DNA of 64,000 nt from Puniceicoccus vermicola (GTDB taxonomy: Bacteria; Verrucomicrobiota; Verrucomicrobiia; Opitutales; Puniceicoccaceae). The stretch lies in the NCBI RefSeq assembly GCF_014230055.1, contig NZ_JACHVA010000046.1, forward strand, positions 91,963 through 155,962, in the 5' to 3' direction. A program made the translations under genes and the position numbers. The notes beneath the pieces were generated by a model, which worked only from the letters and a program-made list of their open reading frames with translations, did no database searches and had not been told where the DNA came from. Shown piece by piece: positions 1,032-45,700 of the stretch; positions within the stretch are counted from its first letter, which is position 1; every line of letters begins with the position of its first letter.

Positions 1032-1061
1032 TTTGGTTTGAGCGTATGGGTTAGATGTTGA

Positions 1062-1766
1062 TCAAAGCGGATCGGAAAGAGGTGCTTGCCGGACACTTCC
1101 GTCAAAGAACACTTGGTTGCGGTAGTCTCCGTGGACGGGTGTTTCGGCTTCGCTTGTCCATTTGCCAGCGCCCGAACTTTCTTTGTCGATGTCGCTGAGC
1201 ATGTACGTGTTGGTCGGGTCGGGAATGGCGTGTAGATTCAGGGAACTGGTTCGGCTTCCACTTGCATTTCCAAACGGTCGGGAATTGGGGTTTCCGGGTA
1301 ATACGTTGTGAGGATTGGCGACGTAGATGGCGGCGTAGGGATCGTTTGCCAGTTCGGGGTATTGGCGAGCAACGCCCGGGCAGAGGAACTCTTTGCAGAG
1401 GACTGCCGATCCATCATCGGGTAGCGTGTAGCCGAGGTAGGGGGCCAGATGGGTAGCCAAGCGGTTCCAGCTGTTGATGCTGACATAGGCTGGCTGGGAT
1501 GCGCTGAGTCCGGCCTGTCCGGAATTTATTCGCTTCCCCGGGAGTTGGCCGTCGTTCTCGTTGGCAAAGGATAGGACGGCTAATCCGATTTGCCTTAGGT
1601 TGGACTGGCACTGGGTTGAGTTCGCTCGTTTGCGGACGTTGTCAATGGTCGCGAGAGTGATCCCAAAAAGAATCGCGATCACAGCGATGCCTGTGAGCAA
1701 CTCGATGATCGAGAAGCCAGCTGTGGACGGTCGAGTCTGGGAGCGGTTGGTAGGGAGGGGTGACAT
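1062..1766 (-). CDS. Prepilin-type N-terminal cleavage/methylation domain protein with H-X9-DG (DUF1559-like) domain
   Basis: N-terminal GFSIIELLTGIAVIAILFGI pseudopilin signal followed by a C-terminal HGDYRNQVFFDGSV (H-X9-DG) motif. This architecture is typical of Planctomycetes and Verrucomicrobia. Confidence 0.85.
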   Translation of the reverse strand: MSPLPTNRSQTRPSTAGFSIIELLTGIAVIAILFGITLATIDNVRKRANSTQCQSNLRQIGLAVLSFANENDGQLPGKRINSGQAGLSASQPAYVSINSWNRLATHLAPYLGYTLPDDGSAVLCKEFLCPGVARQYPELANDPYAAIYVANPHNVLPGNPNSRPFGNASGSRTSSLNLHAIPDPTNTYMLSDIDKESSGAGKWTSEAETPVHGDYRNQVFFDGSVRQAPLSDPL

Positions 1767-1913
1767 AGCAGAGCTTTGTTACATACCGATATAGTAACGG
1801 TTCAAAATCCTGTCAAGCGTTATGCTTGGATCGAGCGACGCGGAGGCGGTATCCCTCGCTGATCCTTTGCGGATCTCGGGGGGTGGATTCGGCCTTTGGG
1901 GGCAGCCGAAGGG

Positions 1914-2885
1914 TTAGGGCCTGGGCGGCTGGCAGGAATTCCGGACAATCAGTCGGCCCGGGATGGAGATCCGCAGTCCTTTTCTTTGAATATCTTGCGG
2001 TCGGAAGAGGAGCTGGTTGGCGGCGACTTTTCCGAGCATGGCCCAGTTGGGTTCGTAGCTGGTCATCCCCAGGCTTTCTCCTTCGGAGGTGCCGTCGAAT
2101 CCAACAAGGCTCAGGTCCTCGGGGATGGAGCAGCCGGTCTCCGAGAGTTGCTTGTGCACAGCGGCGGCAATGCCGTCCGTAGCACACACGATGGCGGAGA
2201 ATTGAGTCCAATCCGTAAGAACGGTTTGAAACTGGTAGTTGGGATGAAAACGAAGCGTTGGTTTGAGCTGATGGGAAAGCATCGCGAGGGAGTATCCGTC
2301 GGCTCTCTCTCGGTAGAGTTCGGTCAGAGGGCCTTCGTCCAGCCCGAGGAAGAGGATATTGCGATGGCCTAGCTCGATCAGGTGATTGGTGGCGATTCGC
2401 ATCCCTTCCAAATTGTTGGCGACAATGCGCGGCAGGTTTTCCGATTGAATATAGCTGCTGACTGCGAGGGTGGGGATGTCTTTGAGGTTTTCGACAATCT
2501 CGGGTGTATAGCGTCCGAAGAGAAAGATTCCACTGACAGCGTGATTCTTTGCGAGCATCGGCAATTGGTTCGGTTCTGGGAACTCGACGAGAGTCTCGGC
2601 CCCATTTCGCTGGCACTCCTGCTGAATCGCCAGGTAAATTCGCCTGGGGGTTTCGGATTGAAATGTCGCTCCTGGGCTGTCGTAGGCGACGAGTCCGATG
2701 CGAATGGTCGATTGCGGATCGCTCTTTTTTGATCGGGATTTTCCGGGCGAATAGCCGAGCTTCGTTGCTGCCTCAATGATCCGTTTCTTGGTTTCCGGAG
2801 CGAGGTCAGGATGGTCGCGGAATGCGCGTGAAACCGTCATGGCCGAAGTCCCCAGTTTTTTTGCGAGTTCGCGTTGGCTAATCAT
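1914..2885 (-). CDS. LacI-family transcriptional regulator
   Basis: N-terminal HTH (MISQRELAKKLGTSAMTVSRAFRD) followed by a periplasmic-binding-fold sugar-binding domain, 323 aa. Confidence 0.9.
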   Translation of the reverse strand: MISQRELAKKLGTSAMTVSRAFRDHPDLAPETKKRIIEAATKLGYSPGKSRSKKSDPQSTIRIGLVAYDSPGATFQSETPRRIYLAIQQECQRNGAETLVEFPEPNQLPMLAKNHAVSGIFLFGRYTPEIVENLKDIPTLAVSSYIQSENLPRIVANNLEGMRIATNHLIELGHRNILFLGLDEGPLTELYRERADGYSLAMLSHQLKPTLRFHPNYQFQTVLTDWTQFSAIVCATDGIAAAVHKQLSETGCSIPEDLSLVGFDGTSEGESLGMTSYEPNWAMLGKVAANQLLFRPQDIQRKGLRISIPGRLIVRNSCQPPRP

Positions 2886-2932
2886 TTGTATGTAACGTTA
2901 CAAATATTCTTTGACGGGTCCAGTCAGAACTT

Positions 2933-4522
2933 ATGATGCTCCTGAAATCGAGAATTGAGATCATAGCCAACGATAAGGTGATTCCAATTTGTCTTCGGTC
3001 TGTTTTAAGGGGATCAGAACGGAATAGGTTTGGGAAAATATTTTTCAAATATGAAAAAAGAGACGAAAATTCTGTTCTTCTAAGGGAAGGGAGGATTGGC
3101 TCGCCGATCATGAAACTTGTCCCTTGCCCATCTTTTGGCCCCGGAGTTGATGCTGCTTTTGGCGACCTGCGAAGGGACATCGAGAAGATCGCTGCCATCT
3201 CCTCTGGTGTGGATGAGGAGTTGGATCGGTGGAGATTGGAGATTTCTCGAAATCCGTCACTGTCTGTAGAGAGCTTTGCACTGGAGATTTCACCGGAGGA
3301 GAGGCAAATCGAAATTGAAGCTTCAGATGATCTCGGGGCGATTTACGGGATCTATGAATTCTCACATCAATTTCTGGGAATCGACCCATTGTGGTTCTGG
3401 AAGGAAATGGAACCCCTTCCTTTGGTAAGTTTCTCTCCGGAATCGCAGCGAATTGAATCCGGGTTACCTGAGTTCCGCTTTCGAGGTCTGTTCGTGAACG
3501 ACGAAGATCTTCTCGGTCGGTGGCGTCCGTCCTCAGGAGAGCGGTTTCAGGACTGGCCCAAGCGTGAGAGTGTTCTCTCTCAACCTTCTACATTGTTGAA
3601 GGACAACTATGAGGCTCGGCTTTTGGGATATTACACTCCGGTTGTCGAGAGCGAGGCCATGGAGATGATTTTTGAGGCGATATTGCGCTTGAGGGGCAAC
3701 TTGGTGATTCCAGCTTCATTTATTGACGTCTTTAATGGAGCGGAAGCCGCAGTGATCCGGGATGCTGTTCAACGGGGGTTGTATGTATCACAGCATCATG
3801 TTGAGCCCTTAGGGGTATCCCATTTTGGATACGAGACTTGGTGGAGCCGTCAGGGCCAAAACCCGCAGTTTAGCTATTTGAGTGATCCAGACAGTATGAG
3901 AGCGGCTTGGAGAGCCTATGCGGAAGAATGGTATCGCTTAGCGGGTAATCAGGTTATCTGGCAGTTGGGTTTACGAGGTCGTGGAGATCGTCCTCTTTGG
4001 GATCACGATCCCGCAGCCGCAGCCCGAGCCGCTGAGCTCTTTCGAAAAGCGTTCGATGATCAGATGGAAATCATCCGAAAGGTGGACTCGAGAGAGACGC
4101 CGCCCGTAACAGTGACTCTATGGCTCGAAGTAAGTCGTTTGATTCAAGACGGGGACCTTCGTTTGCCCAGCAACGTCATTCGGGTGTTTGCAGATGACGA
4201 CAAGACTTTGGAGATGAAGGGAGATTTTCATCGAACGGACCGGGGTGGCGACCTGCCGTTCGGTTGTTACGTTCATCTTGCGGTTTGGGGAGCAGGTCCA
4301 CATTTGGTTCAGGGGGTCTCTCCGGATCGGATCGTGCGGATTGCCAACGAAATCGTAGAGAAGGGGGATACTGCTTACGCCATCGTGAATGCGGCCAACC
4401 TAAGGGAACATGTGGTCGGGCTAGGTTGCTGGTTCGAACAGTTGTGGTGCACCCGCAGAGAGGCTTTCGAAAAACTCATTACAGGACTTTGTCCCCGAAG
4501 GAGCTGCTCGCTACTACCGTGA
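2933..4522 (+). CDS. Glycoside hydrolase, GH115-like (alpha-glucuronidase-type) N-terminal and catalytic part; the true start is probably internal (MKLVPCPSFG...)
   Basis: The motif FRGLFVNDEDLLGRW resembles the GH115 'RGIFLNDED' barrel start. It lies next to a LacI regulator. The 529-aa product is shorter than typical GH115 enzymes. Confidence 0.4.
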   Translation: MMLLKSRIEIIANDKVIPICLRSVLRGSERNRFGKIFFKYEKRDENSVLLREGRIGSPIMKLVPCPSFGPGVDAAFGDLRRDIEKIAAISSGVDEELDRWRLEISRNPSLSVESFALEISPEERQIEIEASDDLGAIYGIYEFSHQFLGIDPLWFWKEMEPLPLVSFSPESQRIESGLPEFRFRGLFVNDEDLLGRWRPSSGERFQDWPKRESVLSQPSTLLKDNYEARLLGYYTPVVESEAMEMIFEAILRLRGNLVIPASFIDVFNGAEAAVIRDAVQRGLYVSQHHVEPLGVSHFGYETWWSRQGQNPQFSYLSDPDSMRAAWRAYAEEWYRLAGNQVIWQLGLRGRGDRPLWDHDPAAAARAAELFRKAFDDQMEIIRKVDSRETPPVTVTLWLEVSRLIQDGDLRLPSNVIRVFADDDKTLEMKGDFHRTDRGGDLPFGCYVHLAVWGAGPHLVQGVSPDRIVRIANEIVEKGDTAYAIVNAANLREHVVGLGCWFEQLWCTRREAFEKLITGLCPRRSCSLLP

Positions 4523-4532
4523 GTTTTTTGAA

Positions 4533-5012
4533 GTGATTCCGGAATTCAAACCAGGATGGCGCCTTTACGACGGGAGGGCATCGGGATGGATTCTTCAATT
4601 GATCCGCATGCATTCGTCTGGCGAGCCATTGAGTGCGGATTTGCAGAAAGAAGTAGTGGGAGATTGGCGGGATGCAATTGGCCGTATTTTGGAGGAAAGC
4701 ATCGCCCGACAAAATCAGCTCCTGGATTCTATGGAGGACGAGAAATTGACGTGGAATTCCCGCGACCGTCGTTTTCTTGAATTCAACCTGATTACCCAAT
4801 TGCGAATCTTGCGGGGTATGTGTAAATGTATTCGTGAGTTGTCGCGGGAGACCCCGGATTTTCCCTTGGCGCGGGGCGCTTTGGGGGAAGCCTTGAAGGC
4901 AATGTCCGAATCAGAACGAGGACGCTGGGTGAACTGGTATCGAGGGGACCTAAAGGTAGGAGTGAAAGCCCTTCTGAAGCATCTGGAAGATTTGGAGTTT
5001 CAGAGAGCTTAG
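4533..5012 (+). CDS. Hypothetical 159-aa protein, possibly the 3' part of the upstream GH115-like gene after a +1 frame change
   Basis: GTG-initiated ORF. Its frame is open from 4425 and overlaps the last ~100 nt of ORF 2933..4522. The combined length (~690 aa) would fit a GH115 enzyme. Confidence 0.3.
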   Translation: MIPEFKPGWRLYDGRASGWILQLIRMHSSGEPLSADLQKEVVGDWRDAIGRILEESIARQNQLLDSMEDEKLTWNSRDRRFLEFNLITQLRILRGMCKCIRELSRETPDFPLARGALGEALKAMSESERGRWVNWYRGDLKVGVKALLKHLEDLEFQRA

Positions 5013-5075
5013 TAACAGGAAGCAAACTGTCCTGGTGGCGATGATTGGGAAACGCTATTTCCGGACGCCATTGAT

Positions 5076-5429
5076 CTACTGTTGCCCCACTGGTTGAACC
5101 AGAACAAACGGTCGAACGATCATCGCCTTGAAGGCGGTGCCGGTCTTCTCCCAGTGTTCAGCATGGAGGTCGCAGGGCTGGACGAGGTCGCCCGATTTTA
5201 GCCAGGCTTTGACTTGGGCCTGATCGTCTTGGGTAAAGGCGAGGCCGGCGGTCTTCAGGTCGAGGGAGGGATCGACGTAGACCAGAGAGCCTTTCTCGTA
5301 GTGAGGTTTCAAGTAGGACCAGTCGACTTCGCCCGAGTATTTCTCGAGCTTCTCCTCGTCGGTGGAGTGGTCCTCGGCCGGGGCAAATTCATCCAAGCTT
5401 CGGCGGGCGGGGAAGTCGTCGTTAAACAT
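5076..5429 (-). CDS. Small conserved cytoplasmic protein, DUF2288-like
   Basis: 117 aa. GEVDWSYLKPHYEKGSLVYVDPSLDL and KAWLKSGDLV resemble the DUF2288 family. No signal peptide. Confidence 0.45.
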   Translation of the reverse strand: MFNDDFPARRSLDEFAPAEDHSTDEEKLEKYSGEVDWSYLKPHYEKGSLVYVDPSLDLKTAGLAFTQDDQAQVKAWLKSGDLVQPCDLHAEHWEKTGTAFKAMIVRPFVLVQPVGQQ

Positions 5430-5525
5430 GGTTGTGTTTTGTCGGAAAGAGGGTGTGAGGTTAAGAGGTTTTGACGTTGGGAGGTTTGGACTCGTTTGTC
5501 CTCTTGATTTACCGGGGCGCTCCCC

Positions 5526-6167
5526 TCACTGCATGGAAGCGATGAAGTCGTTGGCTTCGGCGATGGAGGCCTCCATTTCGGCGATTAGGTCGGCGACCCG
5601 GCCTTGGATCGCGGTCACCTCTTGGTCGAGCGAGGCGATGGCCCGGGCATTGAGGTTGTGTTTGAGATAGAGGACTTGGTCCCGGAACAGGTCGAGAACC
5701 GGGTACATGGATTCTTCCGCCGCGCGCATTTTGGCGATCATTTCCTCATAGCTGCGTTCGGTGGCCTTGAGGGTCTTCTTGCTTTCGCGACGGAGTTCGG
5801 TGCTGCTGTATTCGGAGAGTTCATCGTCCCATTCATCGAAAAGGTCATTGGCGACCTGTTCAATGGAAGCGATTCGTTCGGAGACCTCCTCCGCACTCGC
5901 TTCACTTTCCTGGAAGGCGTCATTGAGGCGATTATAGACCTTCTCGAGATTGCCACCGTCGTAGCCGGTGACGGAGGTGAAGGCTTCGAGGGCGTCGGAA
6001 AAGGTTTCCTTGCTCTCCTCTTGGGCATCGCGGGCGTCTTCGACCCGGTCGACCATGATGTCGCGTTTCTCAATGCCGAACTTCTCCATCGTAGAATAGT
6101 AGGTCGAACGGCAGCCCACTAGAGTGAGGAGAAGAAGCCCGAAAGAAAGGGAGTTTTTGAAATTCAT
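5526..6167 (-). CDS. Lipoprotein, DUF2959-like
   Basis: Signal peptide with lipobox (LLLLTLVGC) and an STYYSTMEKFGIEKRDIMVDRVEDARDAQ motif. The remainder is predicted coiled-coil and acidic. Confidence 0.55.
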   Translation of the reverse strand: MNFKNSLSFGLLLLTLVGCRSTYYSTMEKFGIEKRDIMVDRVEDARDAQEESKETFSDALEAFTSVTGYDGGNLEKVYNRLNDAFQESEASAEEVSERIASIEQVANDLFDEWDDELSEYSSTELRRESKKTLKATERSYEEMIAKMRAAEESMYPVLDLFRDQVLYLKHNLNARAIASLDQEVTAIQGRVADLIAEMEASIAEANDFIASMQ

Positions 6168-6361
6168 GGAGGCAGTATAGAAGGATTTTGCCCGCCGAAC
6201 ATGTTTTTCTGGAGAAGGGGGAGGCGCTTTGAGATCGCGAGGCGAAACAACGAATTCCCCTGACGGACCCAGGTTTAGCCGCCAAGAGGAGCAAAAGTGC
6301 GCAGAATGGGAAAACGAATCGATTCACGATCGTTCCTTCCCAGAAGAGTAAGCCTAGGTGG

Positions 6362-6425
6362 GCATGCCCAAAGTAGTGAGAGCTTCCAGCTCTCTCATCG
6401 CGTTGGAGCGGGAAAGTGCAGACTT
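6362..6425. repeat. Short hairpin repeat family F (copy 1), upstream of the ankyrin gene pair
   Basis: catgcccaaagtagtgagagcttccagctctctcatcgcgttggagcgggaaagtgcag. Core hairpin GAGAGCT-TCC-AGCTCTC. Confidence 0.7.
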
Positions 6426-6921
6426 CCGCCTCTATCGTGCATACACTATGTTCTTGTCGAGGGATGAAAAATTGGTCTGCGAAGAGGACCAAAATTTTGC
6501 AAAAAAAGAAGAGCCCGGCAGCTCCTATCTCTGGAATCAACGCGCCAGATAATTCTGGATCGATTATTCCAATAAGCGAATATTAGCGGTTACCAGCTTA
6601 GCTGACTCTTCTTCAGCTCGGAATCCGTAAACGGAAAACCGTAAAACCGAAAAATGAACCAACCTCGGATCGGCTATATTAGAGTTGCTGCCCCTTTTGC
6701 GCACGCTCTTCGGACCGCCCCGCCCCGGGAAGTTTATGGATTGACAGTCAACGGCCTCTCCTCAGGATTTGCCCCGGTTGTTACGGGCAACCCCCTCATC
6801 CGCGGAAAAGGCTGCGCCTACCTGTTAATTCATAGTCATTATTGAATGACGAACCTTCTCGTCGGCTGGCGGATGTCCGGCATCAACAATACCAGGCAGT
6901 TTTCTGCCCAGGAGGTAAGTC

Positions 6922-8823
6922 ATGCAAAATCAATCCTATCGTGATCGCATCAGCGATCTTTCATTCCGCCGCGCGGTGGATTTAGTCGACGCTGGCGACG
7001 TTGGCGAACTGAGCCGGCATCTCGCGAGAAACCCTCAGCTGGCAACCCAGCGGGTCAAGTTCGAGGGGAATTACTTCACCTGCCCGACACTGTTGCATTT
7101 TGTTGCGGAGAATCCCATCCGCAATGGTGGGCTCCCTCCCAATATCGATAAAGTCGCCGAGGTGATCCTCCAATTCGGCGCGGATGTGAACGCCAGTTCG
7201 CATCCGAGCAGATCAGAGACAACGCTGTCGCTGGTTGCGTCCGGGATGGTGTCGCGCGAAAGCGGTGTGCAGCAGGCGTTGCTGGATGTGCTCGCCATGC
7301 ATGGTGCCGACATGAATTTGGGAGTGTACGCGGCCCTGGGGCATGGCGAGCGGGCTGCAGCTCGCTCTATGGTTGAGCTGGGTGCCAGGGTCGATCTTGT
7401 GATTGCGGCTGGTCTAGGCCGACTGAAAGACATCCACCGATGGTTGCCCGAGGCTGAGGAGGCGATACTTCGATACGCTTTGGCGGCTGCGGTCATAAAT
7501 CGCCAAATCGAAGCGGTGCGGCTGCTCCTACCTCGTATTTCCGATATCGAGGCCTTCAATCCAGAGGGCTTTCACGCGCATTCTACGCCTTTGCATCAAG
7601 CGGTGGCCAATGATGATCCCGACATGGTGATCTTGCTGTTGGATCACGGTGCCCGATGGGACTGTCCCGAAGATAAACTGTGGGGAGGGACGCCTTGTGA
7701 TTGGGCGGTTCACCAAAGTAAGGGCCGCGTGATTGATGTCCTCGCTCGGCGTGGATTTGAGGTGAATCTCCAACAAGCGGCTGCGTGGAATGCGCGGCAA
7801 ACCGTTGAATCGATTCTAGAAAGCCAACCGGAATGCGTGGACGATGTGGGCGAGTGGGGAACCGCACTCCAGCAAGCGGCCTACCATGGGCACTACGCCA
7901 TTGCCGAATTGCTGATGAGGAAAGGGGCCGACCCCAATCGGTCGAAAGGCCACGAAAAGCTACAATCAAAAGGGGAACTGCCCTTGGATATCGCCATCGA
8001 GCGCAATCAGGAATACGTTGTGAGCGAGTTGATTCGTTGGGGGGGGATGACGCTTGAGCAGTGTCTGGATGTGGAGAGCGATCTACACTTATTTCAACGG
8101 GCCGTCTGTGCGATCAAGAGTGGTGATGTCGAAGCTCTGCGAAAGCTTTTAGAGAAACATCCGACGCTAGCCAATGCCTATCAGGATGGTTCCGATCGGA
8201 CTCTGTTGCACGTTGCCTGCGATTGGCCGGGGCACTTTCCGAATGTGTCGGAGGGCATCAGGCTGTTGATTGAGAAAGGTGCGAACCCGAATGTAGGCGG
8301 TCGGGATGGATCCGGCGAAACCCCGCTCCATGGCGCCGCCAGCTCGGACGACGTTGGGGCATTGGATGCAATTCTGGACGGCGGGGCAGACATCAATGCG
8401 CGCGAGGCGTGCATCGCGAATGGAACCCCTCTGACCGATGCCTGCGCATTTCGCATTTTTAAGAGCGCCGAGCGACTCTTCGAGCGAGGCGCAGGTTTCG
8501 ACCTCTGGCATGCGTCGGCGATGGGGCGCATCGACTTGATGGGAGAGTTCTTTACGGATGAGGGTGAGTTCATCGTCGATTCGCCTAGATGGAATGATTG
8601 CCCCGAGGGCGACGAACGCTTTGTCTTCATTGCTTTTTGGCTGGCTGCGCAAAGTGGTCGCCCGGAGATGCTGCGGTTCCTGCGTGACAAGATTGTCGAT
8701 GTCAATGAGCTCGGTCCTGGCTATCAAACTGCACTCGACCGGGCTTTGTTTAACGGAAGTCGGGAGTCGATTGACTACTTACTTTCCCAAGGTGCTCTCA
8801 CCGCTCAGGAGGTCCGGGGGTGA
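6922..8823 (+). CDS. Ankyrin-repeat protein (633 aa)
   Basis: Multiple 33-residue ANK motifs (TPLHQAVANDDPDMVILLLDHGA, GETPLHGAASSDDVGALDAILDGGADINA). Its stop overlaps the next start (ATGA at 8820-8823). Confidence 0.85.
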   Translation: MQNQSYRDRISDLSFRRAVDLVDAGDVGELSRHLARNPQLATQRVKFEGNYFTCPTLLHFVAENPIRNGGLPPNIDKVAEVILQFGADVNASSHPSRSETTLSLVASGMVSRESGVQQALLDVLAMHGADMNLGVYAALGHGERAAARSMVELGARVDLVIAAGLGRLKDIHRWLPEAEEAILRYALAAAVINRQIEAVRLLLPRISDIEAFNPEGFHAHSTPLHQAVANDDPDMVILLLDHGARWDCPEDKLWGGTPCDWAVHQSKGRVIDVLARRGFEVNLQQAAAWNARQTVESILESQPECVDDVGEWGTALQQAAYHGHYAIAELLMRKGADPNRSKGHEKLQSKGELPLDIAIERNQEYVVSELIRWGGMTLEQCLDVESDLHLFQRAVCAIKSGDVEALRKLLEKHPTLANAYQDGSDRTLLHVACDWPGHFPNVSEGIRLLIEKGANPNVGGRDGSGETPLHGAASSDDVGALDAILDGGADINAREACIANGTPLTDACAFRIFKSAERLFERGAGFDLWHASAMGRIDLMGEFFTDEGEFIVDSPRWNDCPEGDERFVFIAFWLAAQSGRPEMLRFLRDKIVDVNELGPGYQTALDRALFNGSRESIDYLLSQGALTAQEVRG

Positions 8824-38284: not shown

Positions 38285-38470
38285 GCGGGAGAGGTTCTTT
38301 GTCAGACTGCGGGCCATTGTTGGAGGACCGGATTTATCCGGAATCATGCAGCCTCTCGGAGGGGCCCTTCCAACGCATTCCGGCTAAAGCCGGTACTCCA
38401 ACGGATTCGGCTGCGTTTCGCTGGACCGCGGATTTTAATCCGCTCCGTTGGAGCCGTCGTTCGTGGGATC
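38285..38470. repeat. Palindromic repeat family G (copy 2)
   Basis: Near-identical ~160-bp copy: ttggaggaccggatttatccggaatcatgcagcctctcggaggggcccttccaacgcattccggctaaagccggtactccaacggattcggctgcgtttcgctggaccgcggattttaatccgctccgttggagccgtcgttcgtggg. Confidence 0.75.
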
Positions 38471-38639
38471 CAAAGCGATACGGCTGACGGGCATGCGGGG
38501 CGGAATGAATTCCGCGCTCGATTTGTGGGCGTTTTTCAGACGGTCTCGCTCGCTCGACTTTTGTACAAGGTAGTGCCGTGAAATCAGGGAAGGACACTGG
38601 ACTCTTCTCCTGCAAGTATATTCTTATGCAGTGGTCTTT

Positions 38640-38760
38640 GTTGGAGTACCAGATTTATCCGGAATTATGCTGCCTCTCGGCGGACCGACCGCTCCTTCGC
38701 ATTCCGGATAAATCCGGTACTCCAACGGTTATGTCTGCGTTTCGCTAACTCTACGCTCCA
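38640..38760. repeat. Palindromic repeat family G (copy 3, 5' part)
   Basis: ttggagtaccagatttatccggaattatgctgcctctcggcggaccgaccgctccttcgcattccggataaatccggtactccaacggttatgtctgcgtttcgct. Confidence 0.7.
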
Positions 38761-38830: not shown

Positions 38831-38866
38831 AAAAAAAGCCCCGGAGCGGGTGGCTCCGGGGCTTGA
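38831..38866 (-). terminator. Rho-independent terminator downstream of the SPFH gene
   Basis: On the minus strand, GCCCCGGAGC-CACCC-GCTCCGGGGC (10-bp perfect stem) followed by TTTTTTT, immediately after the stop codon at 38867-38869. Confidence 0.65.
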
Positions 38867-40099
38867 TTAGATGAGCTTGACGATTCGCTTACTCAGCTCC
38901 TGCCCATCTCCAACGAAGATTTGCAGGTTGGCCTTTTCGGTGATCTTTTCGACAGACTCGAGTTCTCTCAGGCGCATCAGGGTCGGGTTTTGCTCAATCA
39001 GCTTGGCCGAGTTGAGCTGGCTACGCATGGCAGCGGTTTCTTCGCGACGCTTGATGTTGTTCGCCTGGGCGGCCTTTTCGGCCTCGATGACTTGGTTCAG
39101 GAGTTCCTTCATATCACCCGGTAGGATGACGTCACGGATCCCCAGTCCCTTGACTTCGACACCGTAATCGGCGGCCTTGGCGCGAATTGCGTTGAGGGCC
39201 TCGTTGGCCACGGTGGACTTATCGGCCAGCAGCTGGTCGAGGGTTCGCCCACCGACTTCGGCGCGGATAATCAGTTGGATCTCGCGGTAGAGCGCTTGTC
39301 CGATGTTTTCCGAGGACTCTGCGACCTTTCGGACGTCCTTCAGGAAGTAGCTGAGAACGGCGTTGAGGCGCAGGGTGACCTTGTCGGCAGTCATGATTTC
39401 CTGTCCGGTCACATCGAGGATCTTTTCGCGCAGGTCGTATGCGTAGATACGGACCTTGCGAGTGTTCTTCCAGAATGCGTAGCGCCCCGGGTTGAGGATT
39501 TCTTCGAATTCACCGTCAACGTAGAGCACGCCGACTCCACCGTCTTCAATCTCGTGGATGTTGAGGTGGACGGCGACGTCCTTGTCCTTGGTGATGATAT
39601 CGAACTGCGGGTGTTGAAAACGGACGCTCTCAACATCGACAACTTCGACCTTAGTCTTTACCGGAGTTTTCCAGTATCCGTAGAGGCCGGGTCCGAGAAT
39701 TCCGTAGAAACGACCGTCGAGCCAGACGAGAGCCCGTTGGTTGTCCTTCAGGTCGATGAAATCAGCGTGGTCGCTGATCACGCTTTCGTCGCGAAGCTGC
39801 CGTAGCTGTGAGCTGGAGACTTCGATCCACGGATTCCCTTGCCAAACAATGTCGACAGTGGTGCGTCCGAAGGGATCGAAGATCCACTTGCGCCCCGGCA
39901 TGAGCAGCTCGACGAATCGACCATCACGGAACTTCAAACCTACATACTCGTACGGGATGTAGATGCGTTTGATGATTTGCATGATGTATGGTTCGTTTTG
40001 GTTTTCGGTTGGTGCGTCGACTACGAGCCGACGCGTGAGAATGAAATAGAGGTGCCCGCAGGAAGCTCGGACGAGTCGATCGGCCACACAATCAGCCAC
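38867..40099 (-). CDS. SPFH/band-7 (stomatin/prohibitin/HflK-C-like) domain protein
   Basis: C-terminal SPFH core (...YREIQLIIRAEVGGRTLDQLLADKSTVANEALNAIRAKAADYGVEVKGLGIRDVILP...) plus a coiled-coil tail. 410 aa. Confidence 0.8.
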   Translation of the reverse strand: MADCVADRLVRASCGHLYFILTRRLVVDAPTENQNEPYIMQIIKRIYIPYEYVGLKFRDGRFVELLMPGRKWIFDPFGRTTVDIVWQGNPWIEVSSSQLRQLRDESVISDHADFIDLKDNQRALVWLDGRFYGILGPGLYGYWKTPVKTKVEVVDVESVRFQHPQFDIITKDKDVAVHLNIHEIEDGGVGVLYVDGEFEEILNPGRYAFWKNTRKVRIYAYDLREKILDVTGQEIMTADKVTLRLNAVLSYFLKDVRKVAESSENIGQALYREIQLIIRAEVGGRTLDQLLADKSTVANEALNAIRAKAADYGVEVKGLGIRDVILPGDMKELLNQVIEAEKAAQANNIKRREETAAMRSQLNSAKLIEQNPTLMRLRELESVEKITEKANLQIFVGDGQELSKRIVKLI

Positions 40100-40381
40100 G
40101 GGGAAATGCTTGAGGAGACAGGCGGATGAGATGGTTCAGTTGGCGAGCAACACCGTAGCGAGTGCATCCGAGACACACATCGCAAGGGAGCCGATCGGTT
40201 CCTGACTTCTCTCATCGTTCCGTAACCGGTATCCGCATTTCCGCGGGTGGTGATTGTGCTGAAGCGCTCGGATTGACGTAAATCGATCCGGCGCTTCCGG
40301 CTTGCACGAGTCGCCCTCGCTTTCTTTGGGCGGTTTGAGTCTAGCTTAGGAGGCTAGGGAGGCCAGTGTGGCGGGCCATGC

Positions 40382-40464
40382 CATGATCAGTGGGATTTGA
40401 ACCCACACGTCCTTGCGGACAACGGTTCCTTAGACCGGTGCGTATACCATTTCGCCATGATCGC
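40382..40464 (-). tRNA. tRNA-Leu-like (class II, long variable arm); the anticodon loop reads CTAAGGA, so the anticodon is ambiguous (AAG or TAA)
   Basis: Reverse complement GCGATCATGGCGAAATGGTATACGCA...GTGGGTTCAAATCCCAC aligns with bacterial tRNA-Leu 5' halves. Variable arm GTCC-GCAA-GGAC. One C-A mismatch in the acceptor stem by my reading. Confidence 0.5.
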
Positions 40465-40537
40465 TACTGTCCGGGAGTTGAACCCGGGACTAGTTGATTC
40501 GTAGTCAACTGCTCTACCCATCTGAGCTAACAGTATC
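40463..40537 (-). tRNA. tRNA-Arg(ACG)
   Basis: D-arm AGCTCAGATGGGTAGAGC; anticodon arm GTTGA-CTACGAA-TCAAC; T-arm CCGGG-TTCAACT-CCCGG. Confidence 0.6.
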
Positions 40538-40539
40538 GG

Positions 40540-40608
40540 GACAATCAGCCGGATTCGAACCGACGTTTTCCTGTCTTGCAGGATGCTTTACCTCTTAGCT
40601 ATGATTGC
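40540..40608 (-). tRNA. tRNA-like gene with irregular anticodon arm (TCCTG-CAAGA-CAGGA; possibly Cys-GCA type or a pseudogene)
   Basis: Acceptor GCAATCA/TGATTGT and canonical T-arm GTCGG-TTCGAAT-CCGGC, but I can only fold a 5-nt anticodon loop. Total ~69 nt. Confidence 0.3.
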
Positions 40609-40696
40609 GTGGTTTCCGTTTAGAACGTCGATGCGGAACACAATGACCTGACGGGAAGCCCGAGGTTCTTGTGCCGCCGACCGGAAAGTGAGTCTG

Positions 40697-40767
40697 TGGG
40701 CGTGGGAGGACTCGAACCTCCATCCTGTCCTTCGTAGAGACAGATGTTTCCTTTACACCACACGCCC
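40697..40767 (-). tRNA. tRNA-Arg(ACG), second copy with a different backbone
   Basis: GGGCGTG acceptor; anticodon arm TGTCT-CTACGAA-GGACA; T-arm GGAGG-TTCGAGT-CCTCC; discriminator A. Confidence 0.55.
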
Positions 40768-40775
40768 TCATAAAG

Positions 40776-40846
40776 TTGCGGAAGAAGGATTCGAACCTTC
40801 TCTTGCGGAGTCAAAGTCCACCGTGCAGCCTATACACTATCCCGCA
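40776..40846 (-). tRNA. tRNA-Gln(TTG)
   Basis: U1-A72 start typical of bacterial tRNA-Gln; anticodon arm GTGGA-CTTTGAC-TCCGC; T-arm GAAGG-TTCGAAT-CCTTC. Confidence 0.6.
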
Positions 40847-40850
40847 GGAA

Positions 40851-40927
40851 TGGTTGCAGAGGCGGGATTTGCACCCACGACCCCGAGCGTATGAGACTCG
40901 TGCTCTAACGAACTGAGCTACTCTACA
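40851..40927 (-). tRNA. tRNA(CAT) (Met, or Ile2/fMet) with encoded CCA and an atypical T-loop
   Basis: Anticodon arm CGAGT-CTCATAC-GCTCG. D-loop AGTTCGTTA (no GG). T-loop TGCAAAT (G at position 55). 3' ...CTCTGCA-A-CCA. Confidence 0.5.
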
Positions 40928-40934
40928 TGGAATT

Positions 40935-41010
40935 GGTGACCAAGAGGGGATTTGAACCCCTACTGTGCTGCTTCTGAGACAGCTGCCTCTTCCGGTTGGG
41001 CTACTCGGTC
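40935..41010 (-). tRNA. Class-I (short variable arm) tRNA with anticodon CAG, encoded CCA; identity unresolved
   Basis: Acceptor GACCGAG/CTTGGTC; anticodon arm GCTGT-CTCAGAA-GCAGC; 5-nt variable region ACAGT; T-arm AGGGG-TTCAAAT-CCCCT; discriminator A. 74 nt plus CCA. Confidence 0.45.
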
Positions 41011-41022
41011 TTGTAAGTTCGG

Positions 41023-41095
41023 TGGGAGCACATGGAATCGCACCATGACCTTCTGGTCTTCAGTCAGACGTGCAGACTGTCTACACCATACTCCC
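41023..41095 (-). tRNA. tRNA-Phe(GAA) with an atypical T-loop
   Basis: Anticodon arm TCTGA-CTGAAGA-CCAGA (31-39 mismatch). D-arm GTGT-AGACAGTCT-GCAC. T-arm CATGG-TGCGATT-CCATG (G55). Confidence 0.5.
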
Positions 41096-41101
41096 GGAAA
41101 T

Positions 41102-41177
41102 TGGCTCGGCGGGCAGGCTCCGACCCTGCAACATCGGCCTTAACAGTGCCGCGTTCTACCGATTGAACTACCGCCGA
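41102..41177 (-). tRNA. tRNA-Asn(GTT) with encoded CCA; T-loop GTCGGAG is atypical
   Basis: Acceptor TCGGCGG/CCGCCGA; D-arm GTTC-AATCGGTA-GAAC; anticodon loop CTGTTAA. Confidence 0.5.
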
Positions 41178-41639
41178 AGAAAATTGAATCGGAGGATGAG
41201 AAGATTCGAATCCCCTGATCCGTAGTCAGGTGCTCTCATCAAGAGGCACTGACTTAAAATAATTTTGTTTCCACCCTTCGGTTGGTTTCGCCCCTCTCAT
41301 GAAATGGTCTTCATGGTTTGGACGCCGATTACTTGACGTTTGACCTTCTCGTGCGGCGGAAGGGAGGCCGGTGAACTGTAGTTGGGTGGAAACAAAAAAC
41401 CCAGGTGCTTGAATGGCGGCCTGGGCTTGGTGAAAGAGTGTCTGGTTTCTCATCTAGGTCGGTCGGATTCGACAGGTGTATAGATTAGGAAACTTTGGCT
41501 GATTCAAAGCCCGTGCTGGATTCTCAAAGGAATACAGGCGATCGCATGTCATGAGATTCGGAGTGTCCAATAAGCCCCAAAGCATTGGTACTTTTTGTCT
41601 CCGAATCTGAGACGATGGATGAATGGATTTTATGCGTGT

Positions 41640-41770
41640 GTGCATGACGTGAATGGATGAATGGTGTTTGGTTTTGTGAAATAAAACTTATTTGTCAAAT
41701 AAAAAATATATAAATTATTGAATAGCAATAAGATGGGAGGCAGGAGAAGCTATCCAAGGCTCCGCCCGGA
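41640..41770. other. Strongly AT-rich (~75% AT) intergenic patch in an otherwise ~60% GC sequence
   Basis: Reads ...gaaataaaacttatttgtcaaataaaaaatatataaattattgaatagcaataag...; lies ~450 bp from the tRNA array. Confidence 0.6.
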
Positions 41771-42164
41771 CACGGGATGCGATCTTCGATTGCAAGCCAG
41801 TGTCTCTGGGAAGAAGGAAATAAAAAAGCCCGGGTGTTTTCACAGTCCGGGCTCATTCCTAAAGTGTAGTTTGTTTTCTTTCTAATCGTCGAATTGAGTG
41901 ATTAAAACGGTTAGCGCTACACGGGTGTGGCCGGACAAATGGGCACAACACGTTCCCATTGGATTTTCATTTTGAAAACCCAACATGAGTCGTTCTCTGA
42001 TCTGTCGGAGGTGTAGCATTACGAAATAAGGAAGGATGTTTGATCGCGGATGGGATGATTTCTGTCAACGGGTAAATCGGATTGCGGAAATATTATTGTA
42101 TCACTATACGTTGATGGAATCGAAGGAGGATCGCGCGAGTCGGAACGGATTCAGATCCAGTGCC

Positions 42165-42365
42165 TTTGTTGGAGTCCCGGATTTATCCGGAATCATGCTG
42201 CCTCTCGGAGGGCCGCAGACCGATCCAACGCACTCCGGCTAAAGCCGGTGCTCCAACCTCGCCCAATGCGGCATCCCGCTTGAGTACCGAATTTATCCGG
42301 GATCATCCTGCCTCTCAGAGAGCCCTTGCATTCCCGAGGATTAAAGTAGCCGGGTTGGTTCCCCG
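42165..42365. repeat. Palindromic repeat family G (copies 4 and 5, tandem)
   Basis: gttggagtcccggatttatccggaatcatgctgcctctcggagggccgcagaccgatccaacgcactccggctaaagccggtgctccaacc followed by cttgagtaccgaatttatccgggatcatcctgcctctcagagagccc…. Confidence 0.7.
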
Positions 42366-42589
42366 CCCGGCTCCGCACCGCTATGCTGAATGATTGACCG
42401 GATTTGATCTAATCGAGATTTCCGAAATGGCGTAGGAGCTGGAAGCTCCCGCTACGGTTTGGATCAACGGAGCCCATATCGTAGTTCGGAGCTTCCAGCT
42501 CCCGAACAAAGGTCCGAGATGTCGGGGACATCCTGCGATATCATAGAAATCGGATTCTCCTCCTGCGATTGTATCGTTATTCGCGGGCC

Positions 42590-42685
42590 TTTGTTGGAGT
42601 ACCGGATTTATCCGGAATTATGCTGCCTCTCAGAGGGCCTTTCCAGCGCATTCCGGATAAAGCCGGTACTCCAACCCTTTCATAG
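42590..42685. repeat. Palindromic repeat family G (copy 6)
   Basis: tgttggagtaccggatttatccggaattatgctgcctctcagagggcctttccagcgcattccggataaagccggtactccaaccc. Confidence 0.75.
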
Positions 42686-42728
42686 GCGCTCTATTTGTGG
42701 GCCTTTTCGGGACGGTCTTTCCCAGTTC

Positions 42729-45700
42729 CTATTCCTTCTTCCGGGAGATCCCGCAGCCCAGTGCTCCCAGGAGGATAAAGGCAACCAGCGCGATCCACCA
42801 ACTGCCTTCGTCTGCGGGTTGGCGGGTGGGTTCGGTTTGGAAGCTTACGTATAGTTCGGCCCAGGGATCTACGGCGACTACGCGCTGGAGGCGGATGAAC
42901 TGGGTGGCTGCGGGCACGGTGAGGTCGAACTGGGCGGGCGAGGGAAGGGCCGCGTTCTGTTGTTCGATCAATTGTTGGACAACAGCGGCGAGGCCTTCTG
43001 CCGATTGGGCGGACTGGACGGGGATGGCTCCGCTTTGGTTCTCCATTTGGGCCATGGCGTTGACGTTGCCAGAGACGTTGGCGACTTTGGAACGCCGTTG
43101 GTTGAGGCCGGAGAGGGCTTGCTGTTTGCGCACCTCGTTCCACTGGACGAGGGCATCGGCGTTGAAGCTGGCGTCGTTGAGCGAGAGGTTGTAGGCGGAC
43201 TCGAAGGCCCGGTTGGCGTCTTGGGTCTTCCCTTGCTGAAGTAGCGAGTTCCCGAGACCGTAGAGTTCCCGGGCCGAATCGATGTTGTTGTCCGTAATTG
43301 TCTGGTTTGGCATTACCCCCGGGTGGTCGGGATGCTGGGTCACGATACCGGCGAGGTTCAGGGTGGTCTCAAGCGTGTCCATGGGCACCCGCCACTCCTG
43401 GGGCGCGTGAACCAGCCACTCGATGTTTTCGAGGGGGAGGCCTAGATCCGGAAGAGATAGGTTTTGGGTCTCGGTGGAAGTCCGCGAGAGCGGGTGGTCA
43501 CGCGTGGCGGTGATTAGGCGAACCTCTGTTTCCGCGCCGGGGACTGAGCTCTTCGCCAGTGGAATGAGGATCTCATCGCCATCTTCCCAGAGGCGCACGT
43601 TCTGCCCGTTGACGAAGGCGGACCAGAGAGTCGTCTCCTCCTGAATACGGATCGGGAGATAGCGCTGACTCTGGGTTTGCAGGCGAACGACAGTCTCCGT
43701 GAGGGTGATCCCCGTCTCGGCGAGGATGCTGCGGGCGTTGACGGCGAGGACGCGGGCTTTGAGAAGAGACTCCGATTCGCCGAGATTGCGGACGGTGAAG
43801 TGGATGGGCTGTCCGGGTTCGGTGAGGCGGAAGACCAGCCCGGAGGCGGGGGCCTGGGTCCGGCCGCGAAGACGCTCGGGAATGTTGGTCCAGAGCGCAC
43901 GGTTGTTCTCGGCCGACGGATCCGGGGTGAGGTCGAGTCTTGGGTTCGTGAATACGGAGGCGTAAGCGGTGGATCGGTCGGAGTTCTGGAGGTAGGGGAG
44001 GTCTAGGGCCCAGTCCTCGTTTTCCGGAACCGCTTCCGTGAAGTAATGAACCGTGAGGGAAGAGGTGCCGATAATGCGGCGGTCAAAAACAACTTTCCAG
44101 ATCGACGGATCGTCGGGGCTCTCTTGGCGGAAGTGCGAAAGGTGGGGATGCTCGACGACGAGGGAGCTGTGGTCTTTCGGGACGGTGAGCAGGAGTTCTT
44201 TGACCCCGGCATTCTCAATGTCGAGGGCGAAGACGGTTCGGTGTTCGACGCGGCTCGAGTCGACGGTGACGCGGGCAAGACTTTGGGTTTCGATCCACGG
44301 ACTGAGTTTCTCGATCGAATAAGACGCTTGCCAATCTTTAGAGAGGAGCCGGATCAGGTGTCCGCCCGGTTTGCGGATGCCCTGACTCTGGGGGTCAACC
44401 TGAAGGGCGGCGCTCTGCAGGTCGACCGTGACCTTGAGCCCCAGCTCGGGGGAGATCTGGTAAAGGCCGGACTCGCGGGCAACCCGGTCGAACCGAATGG
44501 CGGGGAGCGGTCCGTCTTTGAGTCGGTCGGCCCCCGGGCCGCTGAAGGTGAGCGCGAGCTGGAGTTTGCCGAGGACTTTTTGCTGGAAATGGAGAATGAT
44601 CTCGAGACCGTCCTCCGTGGCGTCCTTGGTCCAGTAGGCGAGGTTTGTCGCGGAAATGTTTTCGACATCGAAGGGTGCCGGGACCGCAAAGCGCATGGAG
44701 AAGAGTCCGGCCTTCTCAACGGTCGCGGTTCCCTGGAAGCTGAGGAGGGTCCGGTCCTCGCCGAGCGAGAGGTTTTGGCGGGATTCGATGTGGATCTCCG
44801 TCTCGACTCCGCGGGCGGTGAAGGTGAGCGAGGGCTCGTCCTTCCCGAACCGGAAGCGTTCGCGGACGCTGAGAGTCTCCCCCACAATTTGCACGAGGGA
44901 TGGATCAATTGCGCTGTCATTGCCGCCCGGCGACATCGCCGTCGGCGTCACTCCCGTCACTTCGACCTCGGAGGGCGTGGCGAGGAGAACGGAGCCGAGA
45001 GACGATTCCACGTCGGCGACGCGAGGGATTTCAAGAATGGTCTCGTAGGGGAGGTTGGATTTCACCATCTCGGTCACGACCCGGATGGTAAACGGTGCCG
45101 ACACCGGTTCGGAGGTGAGGATTTGCAGCATTCCTGTCTCGGGATTGAATTGCCATGTGTGGCCGCGGTTCGCCTCGACGTGGGTGACGATTTGCGATTC
45201 GGGGATGTTGATGGAGAAGGCCGAGGACTGTCCTTGGGCGAAGGAGAGATTGAAGCGATGCTCTCCGATGACGACGCCACTGATCGGGACGTAGACGTGT
45301 TTCGATTCGCTGAAGAAACGTAGGGGCTCTTTGGCCGGATCGCGCTTCGCGGGGGCCCAAGAGAGATCGGGGAGGGTGCCGACCCGGAAACTCAGTTCGA
45401 GGCTTTGGCCGTCGTCGCTTTCTCGGATATCGACTGCCTCTTTCGACTCGAGGGTGATGCGTTCCAATTGCTTGCCGTGGAGGATGGCTTTCTGGATCAA
45501 GGCGGGTCCGACGGCGAGGGTTACGGTGCGGGAGTTGCCGTCGACCTGAGGTTCCCAGAGCGCTTCCATCCGGATTGAATGGGTGCCGTCACTCTTGGCC
45601 CGGGCGAGCAGAGCGCCCTCCGTTGTGCGGACCAGTTCAATGGCGTCCGCTTCATAATCAATGGCAGTTACCCGGGTTCCGGCCGGGGCGAGCGCCAGGG

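Follow-up and report, generated by a model that had tools for sequence, protein, structure and literature searches.

What role could be played by nine tRNA-shaped genes, several of them departing from the canonical cloverleaf, that are packed tightly upstream of a gene for an SPFH/Band-7 protein in Puniceicoccus vermicola (Verrucomicrobiota, Opitutales)? The DNA analysed here, referred to as the window, is a stretch of 64,000 nucleotides (assembly GCF_014230055.1, contig NZ_JACHVA010000046.1, positions 91,963 to 155,962); window numbering is used throughout, minus-strand genes are read from high to low coordinates, and loci taken for comparison are denoted by L numbers. The nine genes comprise six tRNAs (#1–6, block A) and three tRNA-like elements (X, Y and Z, #7–9), which are followed by a structured leader and the SPFH gene. 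The locus belongs to two kinds of system that have been described separately and are fused here, the long tRNA arrays (L-arrays) and the predicted Band-7/b7a-tRNA module. Its array is a short, partly eroded relative of the L-arrays of Planctomycetes-Verrucomicrobia-Chlamydiae (PVC) bacteria, and its last three genes are tRNA-like non-coding RNAs (ncRNAs) tied to a Band-7 RNA-repair-type module. We consider it probable (roughly 0.6), largely by analogy with related systems, that the locus acts as a self-contained accessory tRNA/RNA-repair-type module that would be co-transcribed and induced by damage, with block A replacing tRNAs while X-Y-Z and the leader work with the Band-7 scaffold in tRNA healing or surveillance.

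ARAGORN predicted nine tRNA-shaped genes, all of them on the minus strand, in the interval 40382–41177, and the Rfam family RF00005 independently matched all nine at 46.9–58 bits (gathering score 29). They lie in a single orientation with intergenic gaps of −3 to 87 nt, the largest of which separates #6 from X, while X abuts Y and Y overlaps Z by 1–3 nt. Their scores are lower than that of the tRNA-Pro of L083 (68.9 bits), which served as an ordinary bacterial comparison, and this is consistent with non-canonical features. Block A comprises, in order, #1 tRNA-Asn(GTT) (41102–41177; G73, CCA encoded, T-loop GTCGGAG), #2 tRNA-Phe(GAA) (41021–41095; A73, T-loop TGCGATT with G55, D-loop TAGACAGTCTG without GG), #3 a class-I tRNA-Leu(CAG) of 77 nt (40934–41010; A73, CCA encoded), #4 tRNA(CAT) (40851–40927; U1-A72, A73, CCA, T-loop TGCAAAT with G55, D-loop AGTTCGTTA without GG), #5 tRNA-Gln(TTG) (40775–40846; canonical elbow, CCA not encoded) and #6 tRNA-Arg(ACG) (40696–40767; canonical elbow, A20, A73). 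Taken across the array, the 3' ends are thus a mixture of CCA and non-CCA types. A decayed tRNA-His remnant at the 5' edge (41186–41255, minus strand) was recognised by alignment to the tRNA-His(GTG) of L001, L003 and L004; this pseudogene keeps the D and anticodon arms (AGCACCTGACT..GGGGAT), has lost the T arm, carries the anticodon ACG and was called by neither ARAGORN nor Rfam.

A first-pass annotation, made by hand folding, had reported about nine minus-strand tRNA genes with two different Arg(ACG) backbones, a class-I CAG tRNA with A73, TGCxxxT T-loops and D-loops without GG in the Met and Phe members, and the Asn T-loop GTCGGAG, next to an AT-rich patch and repeat clusters. The ARAGORN run that it had proposed left every one of these oddities in place: the two Arg(ACG) genes (#6 and Y) are both present and unrelated to each other, and both the patch (around 41650–41740) and the repeat clusters (38302–38746 and 42151–42695) are real. 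Our analysis adds the two AAG elements, the abnormal anticodon loop of X, the Y/Z overlap, the tRNA-His remnant and the linkage to the SPFH gene.

The SPFH gene (38867–39985, minus strand) encodes a soluble SPFH/Band-7 'slipin' of 371 amino acids (Pfam Band_7, E = 1e-31). Relatives of this protein were found in 444 stretches, counting one genome per species; the best 80 were examined, and linkage was counted in those 75 of them whose sequence extends 700 nt or more upstream of the gene. Same-strand tRNAs run up to the SPFH gene in 58 of these 75, with at least six tRNAs in 29 loci, at least 20 in nine and a maximum of 36. The order of tRNA array, tRNA-like element, structured leader and SPFH gene recurs in about 70 of the 75, and the related loci span Verrucomicrobiota (Opitutales, Puniceicoccales, Cerasicoccus), many Planctomycetota, a Lindowbacteria metagenome-assembled genome (MAG) and others. 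In the closest relatives the module is not accompanied by any counterpart of its neighbours in the window; it therefore behaves as a self-contained unit, and conservation of the surrounding region by vertical descent was ruled out for want of synteny.

Element Y (40462–40537, minus strand), called Arg-ACG by ARAGORN and overlapping Z with its 3' end, is of the b7a-tRNA type. It reaches 78.6 bits with our covariance model (R1) and shares its strand with the SPFH gene, which begins about 480 nt further downstream. Y-type elements were found by pattern search in 64 loci and by covariance model in six more, giving about 70 of the 75 usable loci, in each case less than 700 nt upstream of the SPFH gene; Burkholderia multivorans (L082) also carries one. 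Among the relatives of the window the body of Y is near-invariant (GATACTGTTAGCTCAG..GGTAGAGCA...GTCCCGGGTTCAACTCCCGGACAGTA), and the Planctomycetota homologue reads ..GGTTAGCTCAG..GGTAGAGCACCAGAC-NNN-AATCTGGCTGTCGCGGGTTCGACTCCCGTACCA... The pattern search forced TAGCTCA, GAGC and GGTTCRANTCC, so that the invariance of those D- and T-arm columns is partly circular, which is offset by the covariance-model search and the ARAGORN calls, both independent of the pattern. Pairing in an alignment of 65 sequences amounts to 99.7% for the anticodon stem and T stem, which show compensatory changes at 5/5 and 3/5 pairs, respectively, whereas it drops to 63.6% in the acceptor stem, where the outer four pairs are open in 47–64% of sequences. 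The anticodon columns have an entropy of 1.85–1.93 bits, and 30 triplets occur in the 65 elements; U33 is present in 39 and A34 in 23, and loops of 5, 6 and 8 nt occur. In addition, the family usually has no CCA end and no conserved discriminator base, and the Burkholderia homologue has an anticodon loop of 3–5 nt. Judged from these sequence features, Y is best described as a Band-7-associated tRNA-like ncRNA, not a decoding tRNA, which keeps the tRNA elbow, D arm, anticodon stem and T arm. The slipin locus of E. coli yielded no tRNA-like element with ARAGORN, Rfam or model R1, and a T-arm-like hairpin was seen there by eye only.

The two neighbours of Y share this tRNA-like character. Element X (40538–40608, minus strand; 69–71 nt), called 'Leu-AAG' by ARAGORN, has either a 5-nt anticodon loop, CAAGA, or the loop GCAAGAC, which lacks U33; its body is conserved in L001–L005, while the 'anticodon' loop varies in length (5–7 nt) and sequence. 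Element Z (40382–40464, minus strand), also called 'Leu-AAG', is class-II-shaped and 93–95% identical across L001, L003 and L005. Acceptor-stem mismatches were found in Y and Z (A1xG72 and C2xA71), of which C2xA71, that of Z, is kept across genera. A GNRA hairpin forms the 'variable arm' of Z, and in Burkholderia L082 this hairpin is found after the Y-like element. Directly 5' of X-Y-Z lies a further long hairpin of about 70 nt (40615–40685, minus strand; −32.5 kcal/mol by RNAalifold), which is kept in L001 and L003–L006 with compensatory changes at 9 of 27 pairs. As a separate observation, L001 (2276–2912), L003 (1567–2204) and L004 (8695–9330) carry a conserved insertion of about 550 nt between the tRNA block and X-Y-Z that is absent from the window; it is flanked by inverted repeats (CCGGAGACCGCTGATTCTCGCTTATAG) and holds a small open reading frame with a GLSEEIY ('GxxExxY'-type) motif, a family recognised by eye.

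The anticodon of Y changes from genome to genome, reading ACG, CAT, ATT, GAA, GTAA, CAA or CTG among the relatives of the window. In close pairs of Planctomycetota it differs at 2–3 of its three positions while the fourfold degenerate sites of SPFH differ by 19–30%; at a fourfold-site divergence of at most 17% the anticodons are identical. In L056 the whole anticodon arm has been replaced, with compensatory changes in the stem. Because these pairs are phylogenetically non-independent and fourfold sites are not strictly neutral, we regard the pattern as suggestive of an accelerated change of the Y anticodon, which may be due to diversifying selection or to conversion from array tRNAs. As the anticodon changes fast relative to fourfold sites in Planctomycetota, a more specific scenario can be proposed, albeit very tentatively: Y might be more than a passive scaffold, with its anticodon loop under diversifying selection as a bait, decoy or sensor for anticodon nucleases, the Band-7 protein, whose beta-repeats, SPFH shoulder and long helix recall the major vault protein, might form a soluble vault-like cage holding the tRNA-like RNA and damaged tRNAs for RtcB-type repair, and the array might supply toxin-resistant replacements with A18-G55 elbows and an armless tRNA-Leu.

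The stretch of about 400 nt that separates Z from the SPFH start codon (39986–40381, minus strand; core 40040–40284) is a conserved structured leader or a separate ncRNA domain. It contains sequence blocks common to Opitutales through Planctomycetota, namely GGCCCGAGGGAGGCGGGC, GCAGCAC...GTGCGTGGATACCG and GCTCAAAC..CACTCCGC..GTGTGATC, at a near-constant spacing of 105–116 nt in most loci and 145 nt at most. Long-range helices join the blocks, with compensatory changes at 17 of 26 pairs, and a Subdoligranulum (Bacillota) record likewise has the motif GGATACCG ahead of its homologue. In many loci the domain was seen by eye to end in a hairpin and a T-run 40–100 nt before the start codon, which could serve as a terminator or attenuator. 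The leader, the hairpin 5' of X and the Z arm matched no Rfam family, and both a scan of the whole window at gathering thresholds and a scan of 40000–42800 at E ≤ 10 passed only tRNA. Matches to YrlA, the tymovirus tRNA-like structure and CRISPR-DR families were dismissed as sub-threshold noise over tRNA sequence.

The SPFH protein itself is 100% identical to the annotated 'slipin family protein' of P. vermicola, with an intact reading frame whose start codon we place at the ATG at 39985 (MQIIKRIYIPYEYVG) from the conserved N-termini of its homologues. An AlphaFold2 model (pLDDT 82.8) comprises three N-terminal beta-repeat modules, an SPFH domain (188–287) and a long helix (290–351), and no membrane segment is apparent in it. 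The modelled fold matched stomatin/HflK and also the major vault protein of the eukaryotic vault particle, which aligned over a longer part of it; however, the TM-scores to the vault protein are low (0.37–0.40), those to stomatin/HflK are higher on the SPFH part, and no Pfam Vault-repeat match was found in the protein. In L008, L009 and L010 (Cerasicoccus and a related MAG) the N-terminal beta-repeat region is duplicated, giving about 505 amino acids.

The neighbourhoods of the relatives point to RNA repair. Immediately downstream of SPFH, 13 of the 80 loci encode RtcB and/or RtcA (Pfam E 1e-73 to 1e-100), or else a conserved 328-aa protein. This protein, about 330 amino acids long in Opitutales, has no Pfam match and lies there between SPFH and RtcB (L004, 12711–13697; L005, 11436–12431; L006, L008 and L009). 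Among the close relatives, L004 and L005 show SPFH, the 328-aa protein and RtcB in this order, while L002 has RtcB without a match to the 328-aa protein. Its position makes it a candidate for a further component of the system. In E. coli the homologue of the SPFH protein (34% identity, 88% coverage) is encoded by 1624 of 5426 complete genomes and shares an operon with RlaP (PF10127, E = 1e-96), a nucleotidyltransferase recently shown to extend cleaved tRNA halves by one or two nucleotides ahead of their ligation (bioRxiv 10.64898/2025.12.29.696909). In Pseudomonas aeruginosa, the SPFH protein PaFlo8 is embedded in an rtc locus (PMC13086221), and bioRxiv 10.1101/312249 (citing Burroughs & Aravind 2016) refers to a Band-7 protein and b7a-tRNA predicted next to RtcB. 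L-arrays, reported in Verrucomicrobia and Planctomycetes, adjoin rtcB and are co-regulated with it; translational stress induces them, and in Anabaena they stay unexpressed as long as translation is intact (PMC8421152). In our literature search no paper joined long tRNA arrays to an SPFH gene. In E. coli (L081, about 5683–5700) and Burkholderia (L082, about 5482–5500) we noticed by eye, upstream of the slipin homologues, the sigma-54-type promoter-like motifs TGGCACGCTTCTCGCA and TGGCACGCTCCTCGCT, which would fit RtcR-type control; sigma-54-like TGGCACGCTnCTCGC motifs were not found in the window. The PADLOC defence models gave no match for the SPFH protein of the window, the E. coli slipin or RlaP.

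The six tRNAs of block A appear to be intact. All have complete cloverleaves, 7-nt anticodon loops with U33 and intact 7-bp acceptor stems, and they carry the identity elements that established rules require, i.e. G73 for Asn, A73 for Phe, Leu and Met, and A20 with C35 for Arg. The canonical elbow (G18G19/U55C56 and T54-A58) is present in #3, #5, #6, X, Y and Z, while it is lacking in #2 and #4 (G55, no GG) and in #1 (G54, G58). Across 602 tRNAs of the related loci with a TGC or TTC T-loop, the D-loop GG is missing in 40 of 41 TGC (G55) loops, usually being replaced by AG, and in only 3 of 561 TTC loops (Fisher p = 1e-57). The variant keeps G19-C56 and exchanges G18-Psi55 for A18-G55. It is typically confined to one member (Thr or Met) in the large arrays of Planctomycetota and has spread to His, Phe, Lys, Met, Glu, Gln and Ile in the clade of the window. 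In tRNA-Asn it is the 54-58 pair that is altered, to A54-T58 in relatives and G54-G58 in #1; the orthologues in L003–L006 are 82–89% identical, with the T-loops ATCGTGG or ATCGTAG. The Phe orthologues are 83–91% identical and share the G55/AG elbow in L004 and L005, while L003 has TACGATT, and #6 has its sole clear orthologue in L010. The compensated change of elbow contacts that the first-pass annotation had described is genuine, but its readings as a phage-borne array or as pseudogenes are largely wrong.

The same distinction applies to its anticodon/class mismatch: #3 is indeed a class-I tRNA, with a variable loop of 5 nt, but its identity is not in conflict with its anticodon. Because its acceptor stem (GACCRAG/CTTGGTC) and A73 are shared with the class-II Leu(CAG) of L019, #3 is on sequence grounds a tRNA-Leu whose long arm has been lost. 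The same is true of most Leu tRNAs in the related arrays, where 36 of 52 are 74–79 nt long. The long arm is not required by the leucyl-tRNA synthetase of E. coli. Two side observations concern unusual members of related arrays. Orthologues of tRNA(CAT) carry a 1x72 mismatch (G, A or C against A72) resembling that of initiator tRNA (L001 2045–2121, L003 1338–1414, L004 8463–8539, L005 8918–8994, L008 8266–8340 and L009 8389–8461), while the window copy has U1-A72. Arrays of Cerasicoccus and Opitutales also contain class-II-shaped tRNAs of 97–98 nt with a long arm but a TGG (Pro) anticodon and A73 (L009 7960–8056, L010 5107–5204).

Orthologues of #1–6 in L003–L005 are 81–91% identical, whereas the fourfold sites of the adjacent SPFH genes are about 50% diverged (L001 is left out of this estimate), which shows block A to be under purifying selection; over all array elements the identity between orthologues is 81–95%, and stems are kept by compensatory changes. 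We therefore regard #1–6 as conserved accessory tRNAs that are probably functional. Lys and Glu tRNAs, which L004 and L005 have, are missing from the window array, and L002 and L007 have no block A at all. Since the tRNA-His has decayed, Lys and Glu have been lost relative to L004/L005, and two relatives do without block A, the array tRNAs would be redundant with housekeeping copies, and an accessory-type array rather than a standard housekeeping operon is supported.

Taken together, these data are in line with the following working model of an accessory repair module. The module is probably transcribed as one minus-strand unit: apart from one weak match within the coding sequence, an automatic scan (loops ≤8 nt) detected no terminator-like site within the array or from there to the SPFH stop codon, and a strong intrinsic terminator (38836–38864, minus strand) with a 12-bp stem (9 G-C pairs) followed by TTTTTGG closes the unit. 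Damage to tRNAs by anticodon nucleases, or translational stress, would lead to expression of the unit, and RNase P and RNase Z would release replacement tRNAs from block A. X-Y-Z and the leader, as an ncRNA or 5' untranslated region, could then associate with an oligomeric Band-7 scaffold, and by analogy with Ro/Y-RNA and RtcB this assembly might aid the healing of tRNAs by RNA ligase, or their quality control; no ligase gene adjoins the module in P. vermicola. Several points weigh against this interpretation. RtcB, RtcA, RlaP and the 328-aa protein are absent from the 64-kb window by tblastn, no sigma-70-like promoter was found by our scan, and b7a-tRNA is a purely computational prediction that is described as experimentally unvalidated (bioRxiv 10.1101/312249). 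Moreover, tRNA array units have been defined by at least 20 genes at a density of at least two per kb (PMC4758250), and the window array, with nine genes in 0.8 kb of which six are credible, reaches this density but not this number.

Comparison with known systems places the locus between several of them. Like L-arrays (PMC8421152) and tRNA array units (PMC4758250), the window array is tightly packed on one strand and probably redundant, and L-arrays share with this type of locus a patchy, non-syntenic distribution, rtcB or other RNA-processing neighbours and some pseudogene members. Nine related loci carry 20–36 tRNA genes at the same position relative to SPFH, with class-I Leu and G55 members in common with the window. 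In contrast to L-arrays, the window array has no HNH endonuclease and is fused to a Band-7 gene via tRNA-like RNAs and a leader; the G55/A18 elbow and the class-I Leu did not turn up in the main text of the L-array paper in a word search for 'T-loop' and 'variable arm' (PMC8421152). With the Band-7/b7a module, as summarised in bioRxiv 10.1101/312249, the window shares an SPFH/Band-7 gene preceded by a gene for a tRNA-resembling RNA, and the likeness extends to the RtcB/RtcA neighbours of its relatives and the pairing of the E. coli homologue with RlaP. It differs from that description by the lack of a ligase, cyclase or RlaP within 64 kb and by three tRNA-like elements instead of one, and it adds a large conserved leader and an upstream tRNA array.

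A third parallel is the Y RNA YrlA with Ro60/Rsr (rsr-yrlBA-rtcBA), likewise a tRNA-mimicking ncRNA with a further structured stem beside a scaffold protein, adjacent to RtcB (as in the relatives of the window only) and proposed to be an RNA repair or decay cofactor (bioRxiv 10.1101/312249). However, the window encodes no Ro/TROVE protein, the fold of the partner is SPFH, and RF02553 matched at only 21.1 and 19.3 bits against a gathering score of 69. The tRNA clusters of phages (T4, T5, mycobacteriophages) are similarly dense and consist of divergent tRNAs, whereas the window has a chromosomal context without phage genes, and its SPFH partner is essentially absent from phage genomes. Phage clusters are thought to replace host tRNAs lost to anticodon nucleases.

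Both L-arrays and the Band-7/b7a-tRNA pair have been known, with essentially unexplained functions, L-arrays having been the subject of one experimental study in a cyanobacterium. Their physical fusion in a cultured verrucomicrobium and across PVC bacteria supports the idea that both belong to one tRNA-damage response, and with a length of about 2.4 kb the P. vermicola locus offers a compact test system. The comparison furthermore yields a natural and statistically highly significant A18-G55 replacement of the universal G18-Psi55 elbow contact, a tRNA-Leu family without the long variable arm and a conserved structured RNA domain of about 200–250 nt that is not in Rfam.

Among the alternatives, the main rival to an accessory repair module is a decaying relic, i.e. 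a horizontally acquired array with its companions that has fallen into disuse and is eroding to pseudogenes. The tRNA-His remnant, a membership smaller than that of L004 and L005, the missing RtcB and 328-aa partner, the 5-nt or U33-less loop of X, the C2xA71 mismatch of Z, the mixed CCA and non-CCA ends and the REP-like repeats crowding both edges would all be expected from such erosion. We nevertheless consider it unlikely, as all nine genes score well above the Rfam threshold, orthologues remain 81–95% identical at about 50% synonymous divergence, the G55/A18 elbow (a compensated change), C2xA71 and the class-I Leu have been kept across genera, and the SPFH gene still encodes the complete annotated protein. 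The pseudogene interpretation offered by the first-pass annotation consequently does not hold for the array as a whole. A rather poor prospect is also given to an ordinary housekeeping tRNA operon that happens to lie beside an unrelated membrane-scaffold gene. This would account for the expected identity elements of block A and for flanking genes that look like normal chromosomal ones; it would not account for a tRNA-SPFH linkage found in most of 75 loci of several phyla in varied contexts, nor for an array content that varies among close relatives, since such losses would be lethal if these were the only copies. Non-canonical elbows, a duplicate Arg-ACG, two AAG elements and an SPFH model without a predicted membrane segment fit it no better.

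A tRNA cluster borne by a phage or by an integrative and conjugative element (ICE), such as those of T4-like or jumbo phages, was the other suggestion of the first-pass annotation, and it appears very improbable. Arrays of divergent tRNAs are typical of phages and ICEs (PMC4758250), the module occurs in non-syntenic contexts, and one 94-kb contig classed as viral (L085, IMGVR_UViG_3300007072_000340) does carry 36 tRNAs, a Y-type element and an SPFH gene at 902–7095. Yet a tblastn search of 50,697 phage records with the SPFH protein returned one partial match at 30%, and relatives were found in 2 of 2.9 million IMG/VR contigs against 444 genome stretches. The proposed check for an integrase or attachment site was also negative: the 19 neighbouring proteins scanned include no integrase, capsid or other phage gene, and there is no attachment site in the form of a directly repeated tRNA 3' half. 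Least probable of all, in our view, is that X, Y and Z are working tRNAs for recoding or mistranslation, in which variable anticodons, often with A34, would redirect one amino acid in a species-specific manner. Conserved bodies with changing anticodons and the frequent A34 are what this idea predicts, whereas outer acceptor pairs of Y that are unpaired in 47–64%, U33 missing in 40%, loops of 5, 6 and 8 nt, the usual lack of a CCA end and of a conserved discriminator, and a Burkholderia homologue with a 3–5-nt loop are difficult to reconcile with decoding.

The module is bounded by two clusters of a repeat resembling repetitive extragenic palindromes (REP) or miniature inverted-repeat transposable elements (MITE), at 38302–38746 (left) and, with the same repeat, at 42151–42695 (right). 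The palindromic unit of about 110 nt has the arms GTTGGAGTACCGGATTTATCCGGAAT, and seven of the eight arms in the window flank the tRNA/SPFH module; since a further REP-like copy lies at 21317, this is a dispersed genomic repeat rather than one that defines the ends of the module. Upstream of the array on the minus strand, two hairpin and T-run sites and an AT-rich patch with TTGACA were noticed by eye (about 41850–41815, 41700–41690 and 41425–41390). The hairpin sites were not flagged by the automatic scan because their loops exceed 8 nt, and together these features could represent the array promoter or a separate small transcript of about 270 nt. Farther away, the window encodes a prokaryotic ubiquitin-like conjugation set (Multi_ubiq and Prok-E2_E; JAB and ThiF/E1) at 22158–24682 (minus strand) and 24000–26617, which adjoins a stretch of low GC content (0.45) encoding an M78 peptidase of the IrrE/ImmA type and looks like a defence or mobile islet.

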